Assembly (NCBI GenBank): GCA_012060505.1
Contig: GCA_012060505.1_3027.2
DNA length: 15,812 nt
Source of the DNA: a phage
Strand: one strand, 5' to 3'
In this document: positions 4,942-15,467 of the stretch, piece after piece
Layout: every line of letters starts with the position of its first letter
Numbering within the stretch: position 1 is the first letter of the stretch
Notes under the pieces: generated by a model
What the model saw: only the letters and a program-made list of their open reading frames with translations
What the model was told of the DNA's origin: nothing
Databases searched by the model: none
Program-made: the position numbers and the translations under genes

Positions 4942-5466
4942 TGCGAGTACCGTCTTTAACCGTTCTTCAAATTTCCGAAGAGTGTTCTGGCGTTCAGCTC
5001 TTTGCTTTTTGTAAGTTTCAATACGCTCTGAAATGAGAGTGTATCGTTCATTTACTGATTCTTTCATAAAATCAGGAATTTCACGAGAAGCTTTAATCTC
5101 ATCAAATTTATCAATAACAGCTTGCTCTTCAGCAATTAAGTTATCATACATTAAAATATCTTTCTTGATGAACTCAATATCTTCTTGAGTTACACGAGAT
5201 AATTTAGATGCTTTATCCTTTTTGTACTGTTCGTTAGTATCACGAGACCAGTGTAATGTACGATTTTTATTCGTATTTTTGTAAATTTCTACAATACCAA
5301 TTTCATCAATAATAACGATCCAATTCCAACGGGATTTGTAAATTTGTCCTCCATCAACAGTGATTTCACCTCCGATTGAGATGTCATTAAAGAACTTGCT
5401 TTGTGCTTCAGATTTAAATTTACCATCGTTGTAATTTACCAGGTTGAAAATATCTTTAGCATTCAT
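4939..5466 (-). CDS. Hypothetical 175-aa protein, C-terminal coiled coil
   Basis: ORF track frame; start moved to ATG 5464-5466 (SD GGAGG) because the longer track ORF runs through the promoter at 5495-5524. Confidence 0.7.
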   Translation of the reverse strand: MNAKDIFNLVNYNDGKFKSEAQSKFFNDISIGGEITVDGGQIYKSRWNWIVIIDEIGIVEIYKNTNKNRTLHWSRDTNEQYKKDKASKLSRVTQEDIEFIKKDILMYDNLIAEEQAVIDKFDEIKASREIPDFMKESVNERYTLISERIETYKKQRAERQNTLRKFEERLKTVLA

Positions 5467-8489: not shown

Positions 8490-9011
8490 TTATCCTTTCA
8501 TTGAAGGCGTAACGGTTGTTAAATACTTAATCATAGCTTCAGCTTCTGATTTTGATAGTGAAATTTCTTCACCGTTTTGGCGAATAGAAACAAAATCTGG
8601 ATGACGATCACCACCAGCTTTTAAAACACACATATAAGTATCAGCTTCGCCTTCAATATTTGAAATGATTGAAGCAGTTCCACACGAATGTGGTTTTTGA
8701 TAAATCAATACAGCTTTTCTTCCACCATTTGACTGTTCATAGGCTTTTAATACATCAAACAAATCAGTTCTTTTATCAATAGCTAAAATGTTATTTTCAT
8801 CTTCAATGTTAAATCCTTCGGATACTTCATAAAGCGTTACCCATAAATCGCCAATATCAATAACAGCATTTACTTTTCCACGGCTTTCAAGAGTATGACA
8901 AATTTTCTTGATTTCGTCATAACTCATTTTAATAATATCATCTCCTTGACTAAGGAAGATGTCATTTTTAAATTCAACACGAATTAAACCGCTTCCACTT
9001 GAAATAAACAT
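8490..9011 (-). CDS. Hypothetical 173-aa protein, paralog of the next gene
   Basis: ORF track; ATG 9009-9011 with SD GAGGAAAT; C-terminus EAEAMIKYLTTVTPSMKG resembles the C-terminus of the 9018-9560 product. Confidence 0.7.
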   Translation of the reverse strand: MFISSGSGLIRVEFKNDIFLSQGDDIIKMSYDEIKKICHTLESRGKVNAVIDIGDLWVTLYEVSEGFNIEDENNILAIDKRTDLFDVLKAYEQSNGGRKAVLIYQKPHSCGTASIISNIEGEADTYMCVLKAGGDRHPDFVSIRQNGEEISLSKSEAEAMIKYLTTVTPSMKG

Positions 9012-9017
9012 ATTTCC

Positions 9018-9560
9018 TCACTTTGAAATCATAGTTGGAATTACAGAATCAAGATAAGTCTTTAGTGCAATAGCTTCGTCTTTGGTAAATGTGACAATAT
9101 GTGCTCGAGAATCATCAATTTGGCGAACAAGTACGACATCGCCATCTTCATAAGAAGTCTTGACATCCAAAGTCGTAGTATAATTTGCAGCTACTGGATT
9201 AATAATGCTAGCACCGCGATCTTTAGCCCATTGAAGTTTAGCCTTTTCGGGTGTTTCGACTGTTTCAGATTCTAAGAATTCTTTCACCTTGACAACGAAT
9301 GTTGCCCAATTGCTGATAGAAAGACACATAAATTCAGTTTCAATATTACCGCCGTAAAGGCCACGATAAAAACGAACTTGGAGGTCGTCTGTAATATTAG
9401 TTACACCGGTAACTCCTGAGGGAGCATAAGATAAAATCGCAGCCAGTTCCATAGGAAGAATAGTAATACTATCGTCTTCCTGCGTCAGAACGTATACATT
9501 ACCACGTTTTTCGATAACCAGGTCACCGAACAAATCAGTTGTTTCAATTACAGCTTTCAT
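9018..9560 (-). CDS. Hypothetical 180-aa protein, paralog of the previous gene
   Basis: Track ORF begins at a TTG; ATG at 9558-9560 is used instead; C-terminus DEAIALKTYLDSVIPTMISK. Confidence 0.65.
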   Translation of the reverse strand: MKAVIETTDLFGDLVIEKRGNVYVLTQEDDSITILPMELAAILSYAPSGVTGVTNITDDLQVRFYRGLYGGNIETEFMCLSISNWATFVVKVKEFLESETVETPEKAKLQWAKDRGASIINPVAANYTTTLDVKTSYEDGDVVLVRQIDDSRAHIVTFTKDEAIALKTYLDSVIPTMISK

Positions 9561-9561
9561 A

Positions 9562-9747
9562 TTATTTACCAATTAAAGTTTCAATATAAGAATCAAGATT
9601 TACTTTAGCTTCTTCCATAAGAGTTTTGTATTTAATCTTGTTGGCATGTCCGGAGAAAGCTGATTCATCAATAACTGTTGCTGTATGAACAGCTTTGCTA
9701 TATGTTTCAATTAATTCTCTTAATTTAAAAGCCTGCTCACTTGTCAT
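9562..9747 (-). CDS. Small helical protein, 61 aa, member of a ~60-aa paralog family
   Basis: ATG 9745-9747 follows SD AGGAG by 6 nt; N-terminus MTSEQAFKLRELIETYSKAV. Confidence 0.6.
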   Translation of the reverse strand: MTSEQAFKLRELIETYSKAVHTATVIDESAFSGHANKIKYKTLMEEAKVNLDSYIETLIGK

Positions 9748-9851
9748 CACATACTCCTCTGAATCATATCAATAATGTTATTCACCAGATTATAAGTAAA
9801 CATTGGGTAATTATATTGAATCATCACATACACAACAAACAAAACTTTCAT
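9747..9851 (-). CDS. Possible 34-aa hydrophobic micro-protein (below ORF-track threshold)
   Basis: Manual translation MKVLFVVYVMIQYNYPMFTYNLVNNIIDMIQRSM; SD AAGGAG upstream; lies just downstream of promoter 9880-9909; stop overlaps the next start. Confidence 0.35.
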   Translation of the reverse strand: MKVLFVVYVMIQYNYPMFTYNLVNNIIDMIQRSM

Positions 9852-9879
9852 TCTCTTCTCCTTGACAGTTGACAAGATT

Positions 9880-9909
9880 ACTATACCATAACCTTGCCAA
9901 CTTGTAAAC
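9880..9909 (-). promoter_or_regulatory. T4-early-type sigma70 promoter
   Basis: Minus strand: GTTTAC - 18 nt - TATAGT with TGG extended -10. Confidence 0.6.
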
Positions 9910-9911
9910 CA

Positions 9912-10085
9912 TTAAATGGTGTTTTCAATAAAATTCTGAAGCTTTGTGTGAGCATCAACCATGATTTTCATTTCTTCTTTGGCGAAAGCTGTACCTCTTT
10001 CCCGAGAAGAACATTCATAGTCAGAAACTGCATTAGCATATTCTTCAATTAGTTTCATTAAAAACATCTGCTTTTCAGTTTTCAT
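9912..10085 (-). CDS. Small helical protein, 57 aa, paralog-family member (below ORF-track threshold)
   Basis: Manual translation MKTEKQMFLMKLIEEYANAVSDYECSSRERGTAFAKEEMKIMVDAHTKLQNFIENTI; SD AGGTGG; 11-nt overlap with upstream gene. Confidence 0.5.
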   Translation of the reverse strand: MKTEKQMFLMKLIEEYANAVSDYECSSRERGTAFAKEEMKIMVDAHTKLQNFIENTI

Positions 10086-10269
10086 TATTCCACCTAATCA
10101 TTTCAAGATATTGAACTAACTTAGCTTTAGATTTATCCAAATCCTTTTTAGCTGTTTCTATACCGTCGTATGAATATCCTTCACAATGCTCAACTGCTAA
10201 TTGGTATGAATCTATTTCAATATCACGTGCTAATTTAATGATTTTTTCAAACTGTTCACGTGTTAGCAT
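10075..10269 (-). CDS. Small helical protein, 64 aa, paralog-family member
   Basis: ORF track; ATG 10267-10269; N-terminus MLTREQFEKIIKLARDIE. Confidence 0.6.
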   Translation of the reverse strand: MLTREQFEKIIKLARDIEIDSYQLAVEHCEGYSYDGIETAKKDLDKSKAKLVQYLEMIRWNNEN

Positions 10270-10271
10270 AC

Positions 10272-10475
10272 TTAAACTCTCGTATTATGATCAATAATTT
10301 CATCAAGAAACATATCTAACGCTTCTAAAGCATTATCCACTTTAGTTTCAAAGTCTTTAATGCCTTTATTCGAAATACCCGATGAATACCAAGCAAAGTC
10401 AATCAGCTCTTCATCTGCTTTGCGAATTGAAGCCACTAATTCCTTGATTTTATCCGCTTGCTCTACACTAATCAT
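10272..10475 (-). CDS. Small helical protein, 67 aa, paralog-family member
   Basis: ORF track frame; start taken at ATG 10473-10475 (TAATG overlap with upstream stop); N-terminus [18 protein letters not shown]. Confidence 0.6.
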   Translation of the reverse strand: MISVEQADKIKELVASIRKADEELIDFAWYSSGISNKGIKDFETKVDNALEALDMFLDEIIDHNTRV

Positions 10476-10663
10476 TATTCCACCACATATGAAAGAGAGA
10501 ATATTGCACACGCCATATGAGTTGCAACTTCATCACACATATTATAACGTTTCTTAAGAAGTTCTACAAGTTCTTCACTGGTAACTTCATCCATGTCGAC
10601 GAAAAAATCACCATTAATGATGACGTAGATATTTCCTTCTTGATTGAGTGCTTCAATTTTCAT
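10475..10663 (-). CDS. Hypothetical 62-aa protein
   Basis: ORF track frame; start moved to ATG 10661-10663 (SD AGAGGAGA) because the longer track ORF overlaps promoter 10692-10721. Confidence 0.6.
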
Positions 10664-10691
10664 GATGTTCTCCTCTTTATCTAATAGTTGT

Positions 10692-10721
10692 ATAGTATCA
10701 CAGCTCAAACGGAAAGTAAAC
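10692..10721 (-). promoter_or_regulatory. T4-early-type sigma70 promoter
   Basis: Minus strand: GTTTAC - 18 nt - TACTAT; immediately downstream of terminator 10726-10754. Confidence 0.6.
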
Positions 10722-10725
10722 CGGT

Positions 10726-10754
10726 AAAATGAAAAAAGTCTCCCGAAGGAGACT
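10726..10754 (-). terminator. Intrinsic terminator, 7-bp stem with UUCG loop and U-run
   Basis: Minus strand reads AGTCTCC-ttcg-GGAGACT followed by TTTTTTC, 5 nt after the stop of gene 10759-11145. Confidence 0.75.
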
Positions 10755-10758
10755 AATG

Positions 10759-11145
10759 TTATTCGAGGGAAAGAAGATACTTACTCTGGTAAAACATTCC
10801 AGTAATATCATCTATCGTGCTTTGAATGGCTGGAGGCATTTCTTTATAAATGCTGTTAGATTGGTCTAGTATACGATTAATCATTTTAATTGTGTCGGTA
10901 GGAAGTTTACTGGCATCTGGAATTGAAGGTGTGTATTTTCTACCAGAATACCCCAAATATTGCTCACCAAATTTATCAATCAAATCTGGCAACTCGGAAA
11001 AAATAAAATCGTATGCTTTGTGTCTAGCATAACTTTTAGTTTCAAAATGCGCAGAATGAAAATAAGCTTGTGCAGCCATTAATAAACCTAAGTATTCATC
11101 TGCCTTTGAAGGTTTTCCACTTTGTGAAAAGTCACTGAATTTCAT
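10759..11145 (-). CDS. Hypothetical 128-aa protein in the position of T4 rI.-1
   Basis: ORF track; ATG 11143-11145 with SD GGAGA; ATGA overlap with rI stop; name by synteny recall only. Confidence 0.7.
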
Positions 11146-11435
11146 TCAGTCTCCAATTTAATGTTCATAATTCTAGCGTATGATTGTGCCATCTCCGCGC
11201 CTCGTTCTACACATTCAAAATCAGAAGAGCACGGGTCATTTTTATAGGTCGTTCTCATAAAACTATAGAACTGTTCAGATGATTCTACGCTTTTATTTTC
11301 AAAAAGCATATAAACATGTCTAATACCAGATTCCATAAATTTATCAAAATGAGGATCGACATTCGCTTCAATTGGTGGAGATAAAGCAAATGACAATCCT
11401 AGCATGGCAAAAAGTGCCGTTGCTTTTAAGGCCAT
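11142..11435 (-). CDS. rI: Lysis-inhibition regulator rI, 97 aa, N-terminal signal-anchor
   Basis: Translation MALKATALFAMLGLSFALSPPIEANVDPHFDKFMESG... matches my recall of T4 RI in length and sequence; SD AGGAGG; lies next to tk. Confidence 0.8.
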   Translation of the reverse strand: MALKATALFAMLGLSFALSPPIEANVDPHFDKFMESGIRHVYMLFENKSVESSEQFYSFMRTTYKNDPCSSDFECVERGAEMAQSYARIMNIKLETE

Positions 11436-11447
11436 AAAGGCCTCCTA

Positions 11448-11660
11448 TCATTTTTGTCCTGTATTTACTTTATGCCGATGCACGGCCTTAACTTTATCAA
11501 GGTATTTTTCAAAATTTCGCAATCTAGTATAGTCTGCCGGAGATTGGTTGAGTGATACTTCTCGACGCAAAGCTGAAATGATATTTCCAACTTCCCTACG
11601 AATTTCATCTAATTGAAGCACAGTAAGATTGCGAAGTTGCTTTTCAGTTAATTGTAGCAT
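11448..11660 (-). CDS. Hypothetical 70-aa protein in the position of T4 rI.1
   Basis: ORF track; ATG 11658-11660 with SD AAGGGG. Confidence 0.65.
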
Positions 11661-11685
11661 ATATACCCCTTTAGTTAGATAAACC

Positions 11686-11693
11686 TATTTATA
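11686..11693 (-). promoter_or_regulatory. T4 late-promoter box TATAAATA (gp55-type)
   Basis: Exact TATAAATA on the minus strand, about 26 nt upstream of the ATG at 11660, between the tk stop and the rI.1-like start. Confidence 0.45.
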
Positions 11694-11702
11694 ACTTTTG
11701 CA

Positions 11703-12284
11703 CTAACCGAGCTTTTTAGTTAATTCATTCCAATGTTTTCTACACAAAGAAACATAAATTTCATCACCAATACAGATTTGATTACCTTCTTTAACTGGTG
11801 TTCCATCTTCCATTAATCGAGCTGTCATAATCGCTTTTTTGCCGCAATGACAAACTGCCTTTAGTTCAATAAGTTTATCTGCAATCGCTAAAAGTTCTTT
11901 AGAACCTTCAAACAATTTTCCAGCGAAATCAGTCCTTAATCCATAAGCCATAACAGGAACATTATATGTATCAACAATTCGACTTAATTGATGCACCTGT
12001 TCAGTTTTTAAAAATTGGGCTTCATCTACAAATACGCAATGAATATCTTTTTGTGCTTCAGCCCATTTATAGAACTCGAAAATATCCATATCATCTGTAA
12101 TAATATTCGCTTCCTGTTTAATTCCAATGCGAGAAACAACTTCACAGACAGAATCGCGAGTATCAATAGCAGGCTTAAGAACTAATACACTCATTCCACG
12201 TTCTTTATAATTATGTGCAGCAGTCAAAAGAGAAGCAGATTTTCCAGCATTCATTGCTGCATAAGTAAAAATTAAACTCGCCAT
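11703..12284 (-). CDS. tk: Thymidine kinase, 193 aa
   Basis: P-loop AAMNAGKS at the N-terminus, C-terminal Cys cluster (CHCGKK ... CIGDEIYVSLCRKH) typical of type II thymidine kinases; SD AAGGTGA. Confidence 0.93.
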   Translation of the reverse strand: MASLIFTYAAMNAGKSASLLTAAHNYKERGMSVLVLKPAIDTRDSVCEVVSRIGIKQEANIITDDMDIFEFYKWAEAQKDIHCVFVDEAQFLKTEQVHQLSRIVDTYNVPVMAYGLRTDFAGKLFEGSKELLAIADKLIELKAVCHCGKKAIMTARLMEDGTPVKEGNQICIGDEIYVSLCRKHWNELTKKLG

Positions 12285-12293
12285 ATCACCTTC

Positions 12294-12479
12294 TTAAAGC
12301 GTATTCACATAAGCTATTAATTCATTTTCTTTCTTATCAAACCGATCAGCAAATTCTTCCTGCTGTTCGGGAGATAGCGGGCCGTATTCATCATAAAAGG
12401 TGTTTGCTTCTGTATGCTCATCTAGAAGTTCATGGATAAGCTCAAACAATTTATCTTTTTGTTCTTTACTCAGACTCAT
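12294..12479 (-). CDS. Small acidic helical protein, 61 aa, paralog-family member
   Basis: ORF track; ATG 12477-12479; N-terminus MSLSKEQKDKLFELIHELL. Confidence 0.6.
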   Translation of the reverse strand: MSLSKEQKDKLFELIHELLDEHTEANTFYDEYGPLSPEQQEEFADRFDKKENELIAYVNTL

Positions 12480-12649
12480 ATATTAATTTCCAGGAGTTTT
12501 AAAATAATTCGCTTTTGCTTAAATATTTCCATAGTTAAATGACCAGTATCTTTTTGACCGATTCCAATGGCAAAACCTTTATTAACAGCGAGTTCAATTA
12601 AATTATCAAGCTCACGTAACACTTCGTATTGTAACTCAAAACTATTCAT
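12476..12649 (-). CDS. Hypothetical 57-aa protein (below ORF-track threshold)
   Basis: Manual translation MNSFELQYEVLRELDNLIELAVNKGFAIGIGQKDTGHLTMEIFKQKRIILKLLEINI; ATGA overlaps at both ends link it to its neighbours. Confidence 0.5.
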   Translation of the reverse strand: MNSFELQYEVLRELDNLIELAVNKGFAIGIGQKDTGHLTMEIFKQKRIILKLLEINI

Positions 12650-12852
12650 TTTGGTTTACCTTCTTTAACGAAATCAGGATAAGGATAAAATCCTGAATAA
12701 AATCCTTCACCTTTATGATTGATGCATCCTTTATTAGAACAATAGCACCAATAATCGAAATCACAAGCCATTTCATCATTACATAAAGCAAAAACAACCG
12801 GCCACTTACACTTTTCACAATGGGCATTTTTAAGAATACTAGTTTGGCTCAT
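12646..12852 (-). CDS. Small Cys-rich protein, 68 aa, probable zinc binder
   Basis: Start taken at ATG 12850-12852 (ATGA overlap with upstream stop); seven Cys including CEKC and CYC. Confidence 0.6.
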   Translation of the reverse strand: MSQTSILKNAHCEKCKWPVVFALCNDEMACDFDYWCYCSNKGCINHKGEGFYSGFYPYPDFVKEGKPK

Positions 12853-13061
12853 AACCATGTCACCTTCAAGCAATATTCTTCTACATGCTGTTTACGACCT
12901 TTCTTATCAATAAAGGTATATTCAACGAATGTTCCAATGTAGTCTTTATCTACATCATGTGGACTATTAATTGGACGTTTAGTACGGCAAATGCGTTCCC
13001 ATTGACGAATAATTACTGCTTTGTTTTTAGGATCAAACGGATGTGGGTAATGTACTTTCAT
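12849..13061 (-). CDS. Hypothetical 70-aa protein
   Basis: ORF track; ATG 13059-13061 with SD GTGGTGGA; overlaps the 3' end of the macro-domain gene by 29 nt. Confidence 0.5.
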   Translation of the reverse strand: MKVHYPHPFDPKNKAVIIRQWERICRTKRPINSPHDVDKDYIGTFVEYTFIDKKGRKQHVEEYCLKVTWL

Positions 13062-13512
13062 AATCCACCACTATTAAATCAATATCAGGAGTAAACATGT
13101 CGATTAATTTAGAAACTTTATCCCAATCGCCGGCAGCAATACCACAACCTATACGTGGAATGTAAATTACCGGTTTAAACAAAAGGGTTTCTGCCTGTAG
13201 ATTTAATTCTATCATGCAGTTTACTAAAGCACCATAATCAAGATTAGGACCTGGTTCGTATTGCGTATACAAGTTATAACATATGCCAAAACCATTAGGT
13301 TTATGTTTAAAAACAATAGACATATCGCCTAATTTATCACGAGAACCGTACTCAGTTGTGGTCTTATCTATTTCTAAAATTTTGGGGTAGGCTCTTGCTA
13401 ATTGACCCGCTACACCTGAACCCATAGTATGAAAACAGTTACACCCGTGCGCAATAATATTACCTTCAAGAAAGAGGGCGACAATATCGCCCTTGATATA
13501 TTTTACAATCAT
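13033..13512 (-). CDS. Macro-domain-like (ADP-ribose-binding/processing) protein, 159 aa
   Basis: Motifs HGCNCFHTMGSGVAGQLA and PRIGCGIAAGDW resemble the N-x-x-N...GGGV and G-I-x-G loops of macro domains; ATGA overlap with vs stop. Confidence 0.7.
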   Translation of the reverse strand: MIVKYIKGDIVALFLEGNIIAHGCNCFHTMGSGVAGQLARAYPKILEIDKTTTEYGSRDKLGDMSIVFKHKPNGFGICYNLYTQYEPGPNLDYGALVNCMIELNLQAETLLFKPVIYIPRIGCGIAAGDWDKVSKLIDMFTPDIDLIVVDYESTLPTSV

Positions 13513-14922: not shown

Positions 14923-15201
14923 TTATTCTTTAAATCTAATCAATTTATTCATAGACTTTGAAACTTCTGCACGAACCTCATGTAAGTTTTTAAGCTGTTC
15001 AAGACGCTGCTCATAGTAAGCAATTTCATCTTCTTCGAGACAGTCCTGTGAATCTTCTTTAAGATAACGTGCATAGTCCTGGAAAGCTTTACGGACTACT
15101 TCCTGGAAATCATCAAGACTTTGAATTTTCTTAGGAGCGACAGATACACGACGAGGGGCAGTATAATACTCATAACCAAACCCTGCACTTAATTGAGCCA
15201 T
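14923..15201 (-). CDS. Hypothetical 92-aa protein
   Basis: Track ORF begins at a GTG; ATG at 15199-15201 forms a TAATG overlap with the upstream stop and is preferred. Confidence 0.55.
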
Positions 15202-15467
15202 TAGTATTTTTCCTCTGGTTGGAACACTGCACGACAAGCCCACATACTGGCTTCTTTGAGTTTCGTTTTAGCAATAGTTAACTGATCGAGGCTTTCAGCA
15301 TAATTCTTCGCGAGTTCATCATCTTCACAGCTATCAAATGCTTCCCAAAATTCATCGTATAAAGCGTCAAAGATAAGTCCCAAACGAACTTCAGCGTCTT
15401 TAATAGCATTTACTTTACCGATTTTTTCGTCGGTATGTGGCTTATAACCTTTAATATCTTCAATCAT
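15201..15467 (-). CDS. Hypothetical 88-aa acidic protein
   Basis: Track ORF begins at a TTG; ATG at 15465-15467 has SD GAGGAAG and is preferred. Confidence 0.55.

Follow-up and report, generated by a model that had tools for sequence, protein, structure and literature searches.

Five paralogues of the DUF7438 family in the early region of a T4-like phage: small predicted helical hairpins with a possible host-directed role

The DNA analysed here is a stretch of 15,812 nucleotides (nt), referred to as the window, from contig GCA_012060505.1_3027.2 of the phage assembly GCA_012060505.1 (NCBI GenBank). It corresponds to the minus-strand early region of a T4-like phage (Tequatrovirus) and carries five small open reading frames (ORFs), all on the minus strand, which belong to the family DUF7438 and are the subject of this work. 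Over bases 9400-12600, the identity to more than 500 phage records amounts to 95-99%, the top record being Escherichia virus CAM-21 (98.9%). As derived from annotated relatives and from T4, the order of the minus-strand genes is vs.1, vs, tk.4, tk.3, a Zn-binding ORF of 68 amino acids (aa), a 57-aa ORF, tk.2 and tk, followed by rI.1, rI, rI.-1, mobD.5, mobD.4, mobD.3, mobD.2a, mobD.2, a gene without T4 counterpart and mobD.1. The five ORFs are designated paralogues A to E:

9562..9747, minus strand: paralogue A, 61 aa, PHROG 4859, without T4 counterpart
9912..10085, minus strand: paralogue B, 57 aa, corresponds to T4 mobD.2a
10075..10269, minus strand: paralogue C, 64 aa, corresponds to T4 mobD.3
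10272..10475, minus strand: paralogue D, 67 aa, corresponds to T4 mobD.4
12294..12479, minus strand: paralogue E, 61 aa, corresponds to T4 tk.2, not tk.1; immediately upstream of tk

These five ORFs are genuine paralogues of one small phage-specific family. All of them match the Pfam model PF24219 (DUF7438; 57 positions, gathering threshold 25 bits) with E-values from 1e-15 to 3e-19; the scores of A to E are 58.2, 56.0, 63.4, 57.4 and 69.6 bits, and model positions 1-56 or 1-57 are covered in each case. The same model is not matched by five small neighbours (mobD.5, the 57-aa ORF, rI.1, the Zn-binding ORF and a DUF7202 protein), and a family hidden Markov model (HMM) run against all 314 ORFs of the window retrieved the five and no others, the next best hit having an E-value of 0.36. 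In a leave-one-orthogroup-out procedure, where the profile for each ORF was built from family members that share less than 35% identity with it, the ORFs scored 20.1-35.1 bits (35 bits for A, 20 bits for B), and none of 1000 shuffled sequences reached these values, the shuffle maximum being 14.0 bits. A preliminary description of this DNA had proposed a paralogous family of ~60-aa ORFs, to be compared with shuffled controls; the Pfam and leave-out scores bear this proposal out. Direct Smith-Waterman comparisons gave weak but connected pairs (z of 7.7 for A-D, 5.1 for A-B, 3.7 for C-D, 3.4 for C-E and 3.2 for D-E), the paralogues being mutually 14-27% identical.

Several other candidates for membership were rejected. 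The rI.1 protein, which also starts with L-T-E-K-Q, and the 57-aa ORF at 12476-12649 gave hhalign probabilities of at most 0.2%, and mobD.5, the first gene of the operon, has no Pfam match. Bas37_0203, reported as an anti-Druantia III factor, is a 175-aa NrdC.8 homologue.

The family itself is not new, since it is listed in Pfam as PF24219 and in PHROGs as 653 (C, D and E), 4859 (A) and 2758 (B), with inter-family cross-matches for four of the five proteins, and its members are annotated T4 genes. Pfam DUF7438 takes in T4 MobD.2a, MobD.3, MobD.4, Tk.1 and Tk.2; identity to the named T4 proteins is 54-95% for four of the window proteins, and each of the five has an identical public database entry, for instance from phages RB27 and RB68. 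Compared with the T4 set, the window lacks a Tk.1-type protein, which is a sixth paralogue type, and possesses paralogue A in addition; the latter was not found at the loci of T4, JS10, VR5, E33 and moha. The copy that had been described next to tk is real, and its identity is that of a tk.2 orthologue.

In the databases, the entries for these proteins read 'hypothetical' or 'DUF7438 family protein', and some bear spurious labels. The label 'helicase loader', given to paralogue A and PHROG 4859 and spread in GenBank, was rejected, as A matches only DUF7438 and, below threshold, one ToastRack model. The label 'molybdopterin-guanine dinucleotide biosynthesis protein MobD' of C and D corresponds to no such Pfam or NCBIfam match and appears to stem from a misreading of the T4 locus name mobD, which designates a homing endonuclease gene.

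The N-terminal pattern noted in the preliminary description is essentially the family consensus, M-h-T-x-E-Q-x-x-K-h-x-x-L-h (h, hydrophobic). Conserved throughout the family are T/S-x-E-Q (residues 3-7), K10, positions h11, L14, h15 and h18 of helix 1, and the L-x-x-[YF]-h-x-x-h with which helix 2 ends; the family alignment contains no conserved stretch of 7-10 columns. Paralogues D and E are predicted to form a single antiparallel two-helix hairpin. The AlphaFold2 models, which cover D and E only and are predictions rather than solved structures, place the helices at residues 5-32 and 37-60 in E (predicted local distance difference test score, pLDDT, of 91.8) and at residues 4-30 and 36-66 in D (pLDDT 88.9, with 72 for the loop block). 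The conserved T/S-x-E-Q would then be a classical S/T-x-x-E helix-capping box followed by Q, and the features shared by the whole family, namely this capping box, the hydrophobic stripe of both helices and the C-terminal L-x-x-[YF]-h-x-x-h, would be fold determinants, leaving the hairpin loop and the exposed faces as probable paralogue-specific parts.

The loops differ between C and D. In C (95% identical to T4 MobD.3 and 64-73% to the Dhakavirus copies), the loop motif CEGYSY-x-GIE is kept across genera and is the most constrained part of MobD.3, with a ratio of non-synonymous to synonymous polymorphism (pN/pS) of 0.10 versus 0.30-0.50 in the helices. In D, the loop is hypervariable and contains insertions and deletions that give rise to length variants. 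The five proteins are each of ~7 kDa and neutral to acidic (isoelectric points 4.3-6.1), Tk.2 and MobD.4 being strongly acidic with net charges of -10 and -7, respectively. A search of solved structures with the sequence of paralogue E returned nothing significant, and fold searches for the family were uninformative about function.

Four of the paralogues lie in or behind an early operon, whose genes are linked through overlaps of stop and start codons. The features of this region are:

10692..10754, minus strand: PeSL-type composite element that drives the mobD.5-mobD.4-mobD.3-mobD.2a operon, its promoter being read from the sequence
9880..9908, minus strand: predicted second early-type promoter, TTTACA-N17-TATAGT with extended TG, 10 of 12 positions matched in the promoter scan
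9747-9851, minus strand: mobD.2, hydrophobic, 34 aa, located between paralogues B and A, with its own early-type promoter at 9908-9880
10459..10484, minus strand: start-region repeat, copy 1, at the mobD.5/mobD.4 junction
10069..10094, minus strand: start-region repeat, copy 2, at the mobD.3/mobD.2a junction

Upstream of mobD.5, the terminator scan located a hairpin at 10754-10737 followed by a T-run; an early promoter, TTTACT-N17-TACTAT, extends from 10720 to 10692 and precedes AAAGAGGAG and the mobD.5 ATG. This arrangement corresponds to the PeSL definition (stem-loop, promoter, Shine-Dalgarno sequence and start codon), for which the promoter consensus is TTTACW-N17-TAYWAT (PMC4122927). In T4, a transcript from the mobD.5 promoter is documented (PMC1702504). 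The ATG of D overlaps the mobD.5 stop codon, and that of A overlaps the mobD.2 stop codon (TGATG). The four ORFs of the cluster had been described as adjacent; their coordinates are right, and the row is split between 9747 and 9912 by mobD.2 and the second early-type promoter, which is placed so as to serve mobD.2 and paralogue A. The mobD.2 gene is 94% identical to its T4 counterpart (pN/pS 0.13) and has no Pfam match in the local Pfam scan. For a frameshift-fusion protein (P0022), the precomputed Pfam annotation gives PF26864, most likely on the mobD.2 part.

The two copies of the start-region repeat, a 26-nt direct repeat, are 81% identical; for mobD.2a and mobD.4 alike, the repeat takes in the Shine-Dalgarno sequence (ribosome-binding site), the stop codon with the start codon that overlaps it, and the first codons. 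In the whole window there are exactly two instances of its core, GGTGGAATAATGA, and two matches were obtained in none of 200 shuffles. The repeat could be a translational-coupling signal or the trace of recombination or gene conversion. The 390-nt spacing of its copies suggested that the D-C pair had been duplicated to yield B-A; this two-gene-unit duplication was rejected, since no pairs are less similar than B-D and A-C.

Directly downstream of the cluster, at 8490-9011 and 9018-9560 on the minus strand, lie tandem paralogues of the MobD.1/y05I-like 'putative transcription factor' (PF24449 and PF24448), which constitute a second paralogous pair. T4 has a single mobD.1 at this locus, only 47% identical to that of the window.

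The distribution of the family was examined at several scales. When 1.84 billion representative proteins were searched exhaustively with a profile, only 32 matches were returned, from which two large proteins, a TPR-STAND NTPase and a spectrin-like protein, were discarded as repeat or composition artefacts. Members detected by tblastn belong to T-even-type phages of Escherichia, Shigella, Salmonella, Klebsiella, Citrobacter, Enterobacter, Yersinia, Edwardsiella and Raoultella. In a sample of 40 viral contigs recovered via a tk homologue, the number of DUF7438 copies within 5 kb of tk varied from 0 to 5; the commonest position across T4-like phages is directly upstream of tk, and tandem pairs are frequent.

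Tandem amplification, as put forward earlier, overstates what happened at this locus. Because the paralogues are 14-27% identical and several types are common to different genera, the duplications are ancient, preceding the split of the Tevenvirinae genera, and do not represent a recent amplification. Superimposed on this, the region is mosaic, with alleles exchanged between phage genera independently of the flanking genes. Thus, the tk.2 of the window is 54% identical to T4 Tk.2 while its tk is 99% identical, and it is 90% identical to the copy of Dhakavirus JS10, whose tk is only 71% identical. Likewise, mobD.4 is 73% identical to T4 between flanks at 95-100%, the flanking mobD.5 being 100% identical.

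Gene content varies as well. At 12476-12852 (minus strand), the window carries the 57-aa ORF (PHROG 3452) and the 68-aa phage zinc-binding protein (PF23895) between tk.2 and tk.3; T4 has neither gene at this locus and possesses tk.1 between tk.2 and tk instead. This difference is another insertion or deletion in the hyperplastic region.

DUF7438 also occurs outside the T4-like phages. The Klebsiella Jedunavirus vB_KpnM_15-38_KLPPOU148 (NC_071128, 49 kb) encodes a 58-aa member (55 bits), the gene of which heads a four-gene cassette (locus L048, 4501-5815) lying on the opposite strand within the tail module; the other genes are an unannotated 94-aa ORF, a 'peptidase HslV family' gene and a DUF551 protein. 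This cassette looks like a moron. A further member was found in a 72-kb Klebsiella phage.

The position next to tk raises the question of a phage-internal role, in which the proteins would be accessory subunits or regulators of phage processes such as thymidine kinase and deoxynucleoside triphosphate supply, lysis inhibition (rI.-1, rI, rI.1) or MobD.1/y05I-like factors. The site directly upstream of tk is not only the most frequent one, it persists where tk identity falls to 67-72%. The stop codon of tk.2, whose own ATG overlaps the stop codon of the 57-aa ORF, is 9 nt ahead of the tk ATG, and in T4 Tk.2 shares the early-RNA/middle-protein class of tk. In addition, the mobD cluster lies next to the rI genes, and accessory genes neighbouring these affect lysis inhibition (PMC2962797). 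However, 15 of the 40 tk-bearing loci have no DUF7438 copy within 5 kb, and the tk.2 allele has been exchanged independently of tk, although a tight partner would be expected to co-vary with it; these two observations weaken the explanation. Furthermore, the member in the Jedunavirus cassette has neither tk nor rI among its annotated neighbours, and rI.1 is not a family member by hhalign. A phage-internal role is thus considered rather unlikely.

All five genes are under purifying selection, comparable to that on tk and rI: the pooled pairwise pN/pS values are 0.09-0.22 (0.21 for A and 0.11 for B), compared with 0.15 for tk, 0.09 for rI and 0.15 for mobD.5. In T4, the time-resolved transcriptome and proteome (PMC9697503 supplements) class MobD.3 and MobD.4 as early-RNA/early-protein and Tk.1 and Tk.2 as early-RNA/middle-protein, all four having been detected by mass spectrometry (PMC9697503). 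This detection of the T4 homologues answers the doubt, raised in the preliminary description, that the ORFs might not be translated. The same description spoke of helical early proteins, in agreement with the two hairpin models, the T4 early RNA classes and protein detection, and the purifying selection.

On the other side, T4 MobD.2a has no protein class in the same supplements (PMC9697503); a frameshift divides its gene between two frames, and the product is annotated with a length of 38 aa. A deletion from nrdC.11 to mobD.3, which spans mobD.2a and mobD.3, is tolerated by T4 (PMC9825161), and truncated or fused variants of family genes are present in several isolates. The DUF7438 genes are therefore best described as dispensable accessory genes, a status that supports a role directed at the host. 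Dispensability in the laboratory, the T4 frameshift and the variant forms would also suit non-functional or selfish filler ORFs, retained solely through linkage or through recombination at PeSL elements and homing-endonuclease sites, and so would the location in a hyperplastic region, beside mobD in T4 and beside an inserted endonuclease gene in VR5. Such an origin is nevertheless very improbable: selection acts on all five genes as on tk and rI, four T4 homologues are made as proteins, each paralogue type is kept across genera, and the mobD.3 loop is highly conserved.

Three genes reported to act against host defences share the window with the DUF7438 genes (Acb2/Vs.4, AdfM/Tk.4 and a Bas37_0203 homologue):

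15201-15467, minus strand: Vs.4/Acb2 homologue, 88-aa ORF, PF24729 (Acb2/Tad1 hairpin) at 71 bits; homologue of an anti-CBASS sponge
13033-13512, minus strand: Tk.4 macrodomain protein, the T4 counterpart of which is reported as AdfM, anti-DarTG2
4942-5466, minus strand: NrdC.8 homologue, 175-aa ORF, 99.4% identical to Bas37_0203

According to the HIDEN-SEQ preprint, the Tk.4 macrodomain protein AdfM counters DarTG2 in T4, and Bas37_0203 is an inhibitor of Druantia type III. The tk.4 allele of the window is 57-58% identical to those of T4 and NBEco003 and 97% identical to that of vB_SsoM_113, between flanks at 94-99%, and thus indicates a cassette-like allele exchange. When the PADLOC defence and anti-defence catalogue was searched, only two sub-significant matches were obtained (E of about 0.008-0.01).

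The gene, family and fold claims are solid; the function is one that we infer. In our proposal, the hairpins would oligomerise into units of the four-helix-bundle type, which would bind or inhibit host factors stoichiometrically and at an early stage of infection. Specificity would be conferred by the loop and the exposed faces, and each paralogue would have its own host target. The paralogues would thus be dispensable modules for host takeover or anti-defence and not part of the phage machinery. We favour this proposal over the others because of the dispensability of the genes, the plasticity of their copy number, the allele exchange independent of the flanks, the cassette in an unrelated phage and the anti-defence neighbourhood. 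We consider the chances that DUF7438 proteins are small oligomerising hairpins binding host factors early to be evenly balanced.

Several observations weigh against it. No experiment assigns a function to any DUF7438 protein, and a full-text literature search by gene, UniProt-style and Pfam names found no functional study of the family; the exact peptide strings were also not found in the supplements of two accessory-gene screens and a sponge-prediction study. No DUF7438 gene is among the conditionally essential T4 and Bas37 genes named in the HIDEN-SEQ text, Bas37 carrying four of them. Positive selection in the loops was considered and rejected: a crude per-segment pN/pS never exceeded 1 in any segment, loops included, so that there is no arms-race signature. 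Finally, the conserved site directly upstream of tk could indicate a phage-internal role. The host-takeover or anti-defence role named in the preliminary description therefore stands as no more than plausible, given the accessory status, the allele movement, the Klebsiella cassette and the neighbours, and no experiment links DUF7438 to a defence system.

A narrower form of the host-binding proposal would make the DUF7438 hairpins modular anti-defence inhibitors, with a common oligomerising scaffold and paralogue-specific loops and faces, each copy neutralising a different immune component or signal. Genomes would then hold five or six copies, with alleles swapped between genera as hosts change, and redundancy of the paralogues, or tested hosts free of the relevant defences, would explain their silence in single-gene transposon screens. 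We advance this form tentatively and regard it as doubtful.

Even in T4, the virulent phage that has been studied best, this family of five or six expressed copies per genome has been given no function, and it sits among genes recently shown to defeat CBASS, DarTG2 and Druantia III. The family is well defined and cheap to address by multi-gene knockouts and binding assays. As inhibitors with paralogue-specific targets, the hairpins would represent a new anti-defence scaffold and would help to account for differences in host range between therapeutic T-even phages; in a phage-internal role, their conserved site upstream of tk would be the sign of an accessory factor not recognised so far.

Among known systems, the Sequestin proteins offer a first comparison. 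Sequestin (PF21825; T4 Y16O, 64 aa, a sponge for 3' cyclic ADP-ribose (cADPR) directed against type I Thoeris) is, like DUF7438, small, alpha-helical, phage-specific and present in Tevenvirinae. It works as an antiparallel homo-oligomer with two nucleotide pockets, an assembly that the DUF7438 hairpin could adopt. By analogy, the five proteins might act as oligomeric sponges that sequester nucleotides of immune signalling, such as cADPR isomers or cyclic oligonucleotides, at the interfaces of antiparallel dimers or tetramers. Their size, all-helical hairpin and wide hydrophobic stripes fit homo-oligomers; the Sequestin proteins are helical homodimers of 60-80 aa (bioRxiv 10.1101/2025.07.12.664507). 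T4 already has three small inhibitors of immune signalling (Acb1, Acb2 and Y16O), Acb2 itself being encoded in the window, and the family-wide N-terminal E-Q pair and C-terminal Y/F could form a shared polar-aromatic site. However, none of the five proteins matches PF21825 or PF24729 at E-values up to 1, and the DUF7438 consensus offers no equivalent of the Sequestin ligand residues R8, E12, Q47 and R61, nor any conserved Arg comparable to R8 or R61. Tk.2 and MobD.4 are moreover strongly acidic, and neither PF24219 nor four peptide strings from these proteins turned up in the supplements of the sponge-prediction study. Because there is neither a profile match nor a set of conserved basic pocket residues, the sponge explanation is judged improbable.

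Acb2/Vs.4 (PF24729), a cyclic-dinucleotide sponge encoded 5 kb away, resembles DUF7438 in being a small early T4 protein based on a helical hairpin. Acb2 forms hexamers. It differs from DUF7438 in its greater length (88-94 aa) and by the lack of a Pfam cross-match, the hhalign probability between the family alignment and the Vs.4 of the window being 0.3%.

At the level of the locus, the closest parallel is provided by the PeSL-bounded cassettes of the T4 hyperplastic regions, where terminator, early promoter, Shine-Dalgarno sequence and ATG succeed one another as they do upstream of mobD.5. The plasticity associated with PeSLs is also seen here, gene content differing among close relatives. 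This likeness concerns the regulatory and recombination context and not the proteins. For the proteins, the closest systems include generic oligomerising alpha-hairpins, namely designed homo-oligomers, the 71-aa hairpin 2js5 and the DHp domain of histidine kinases.

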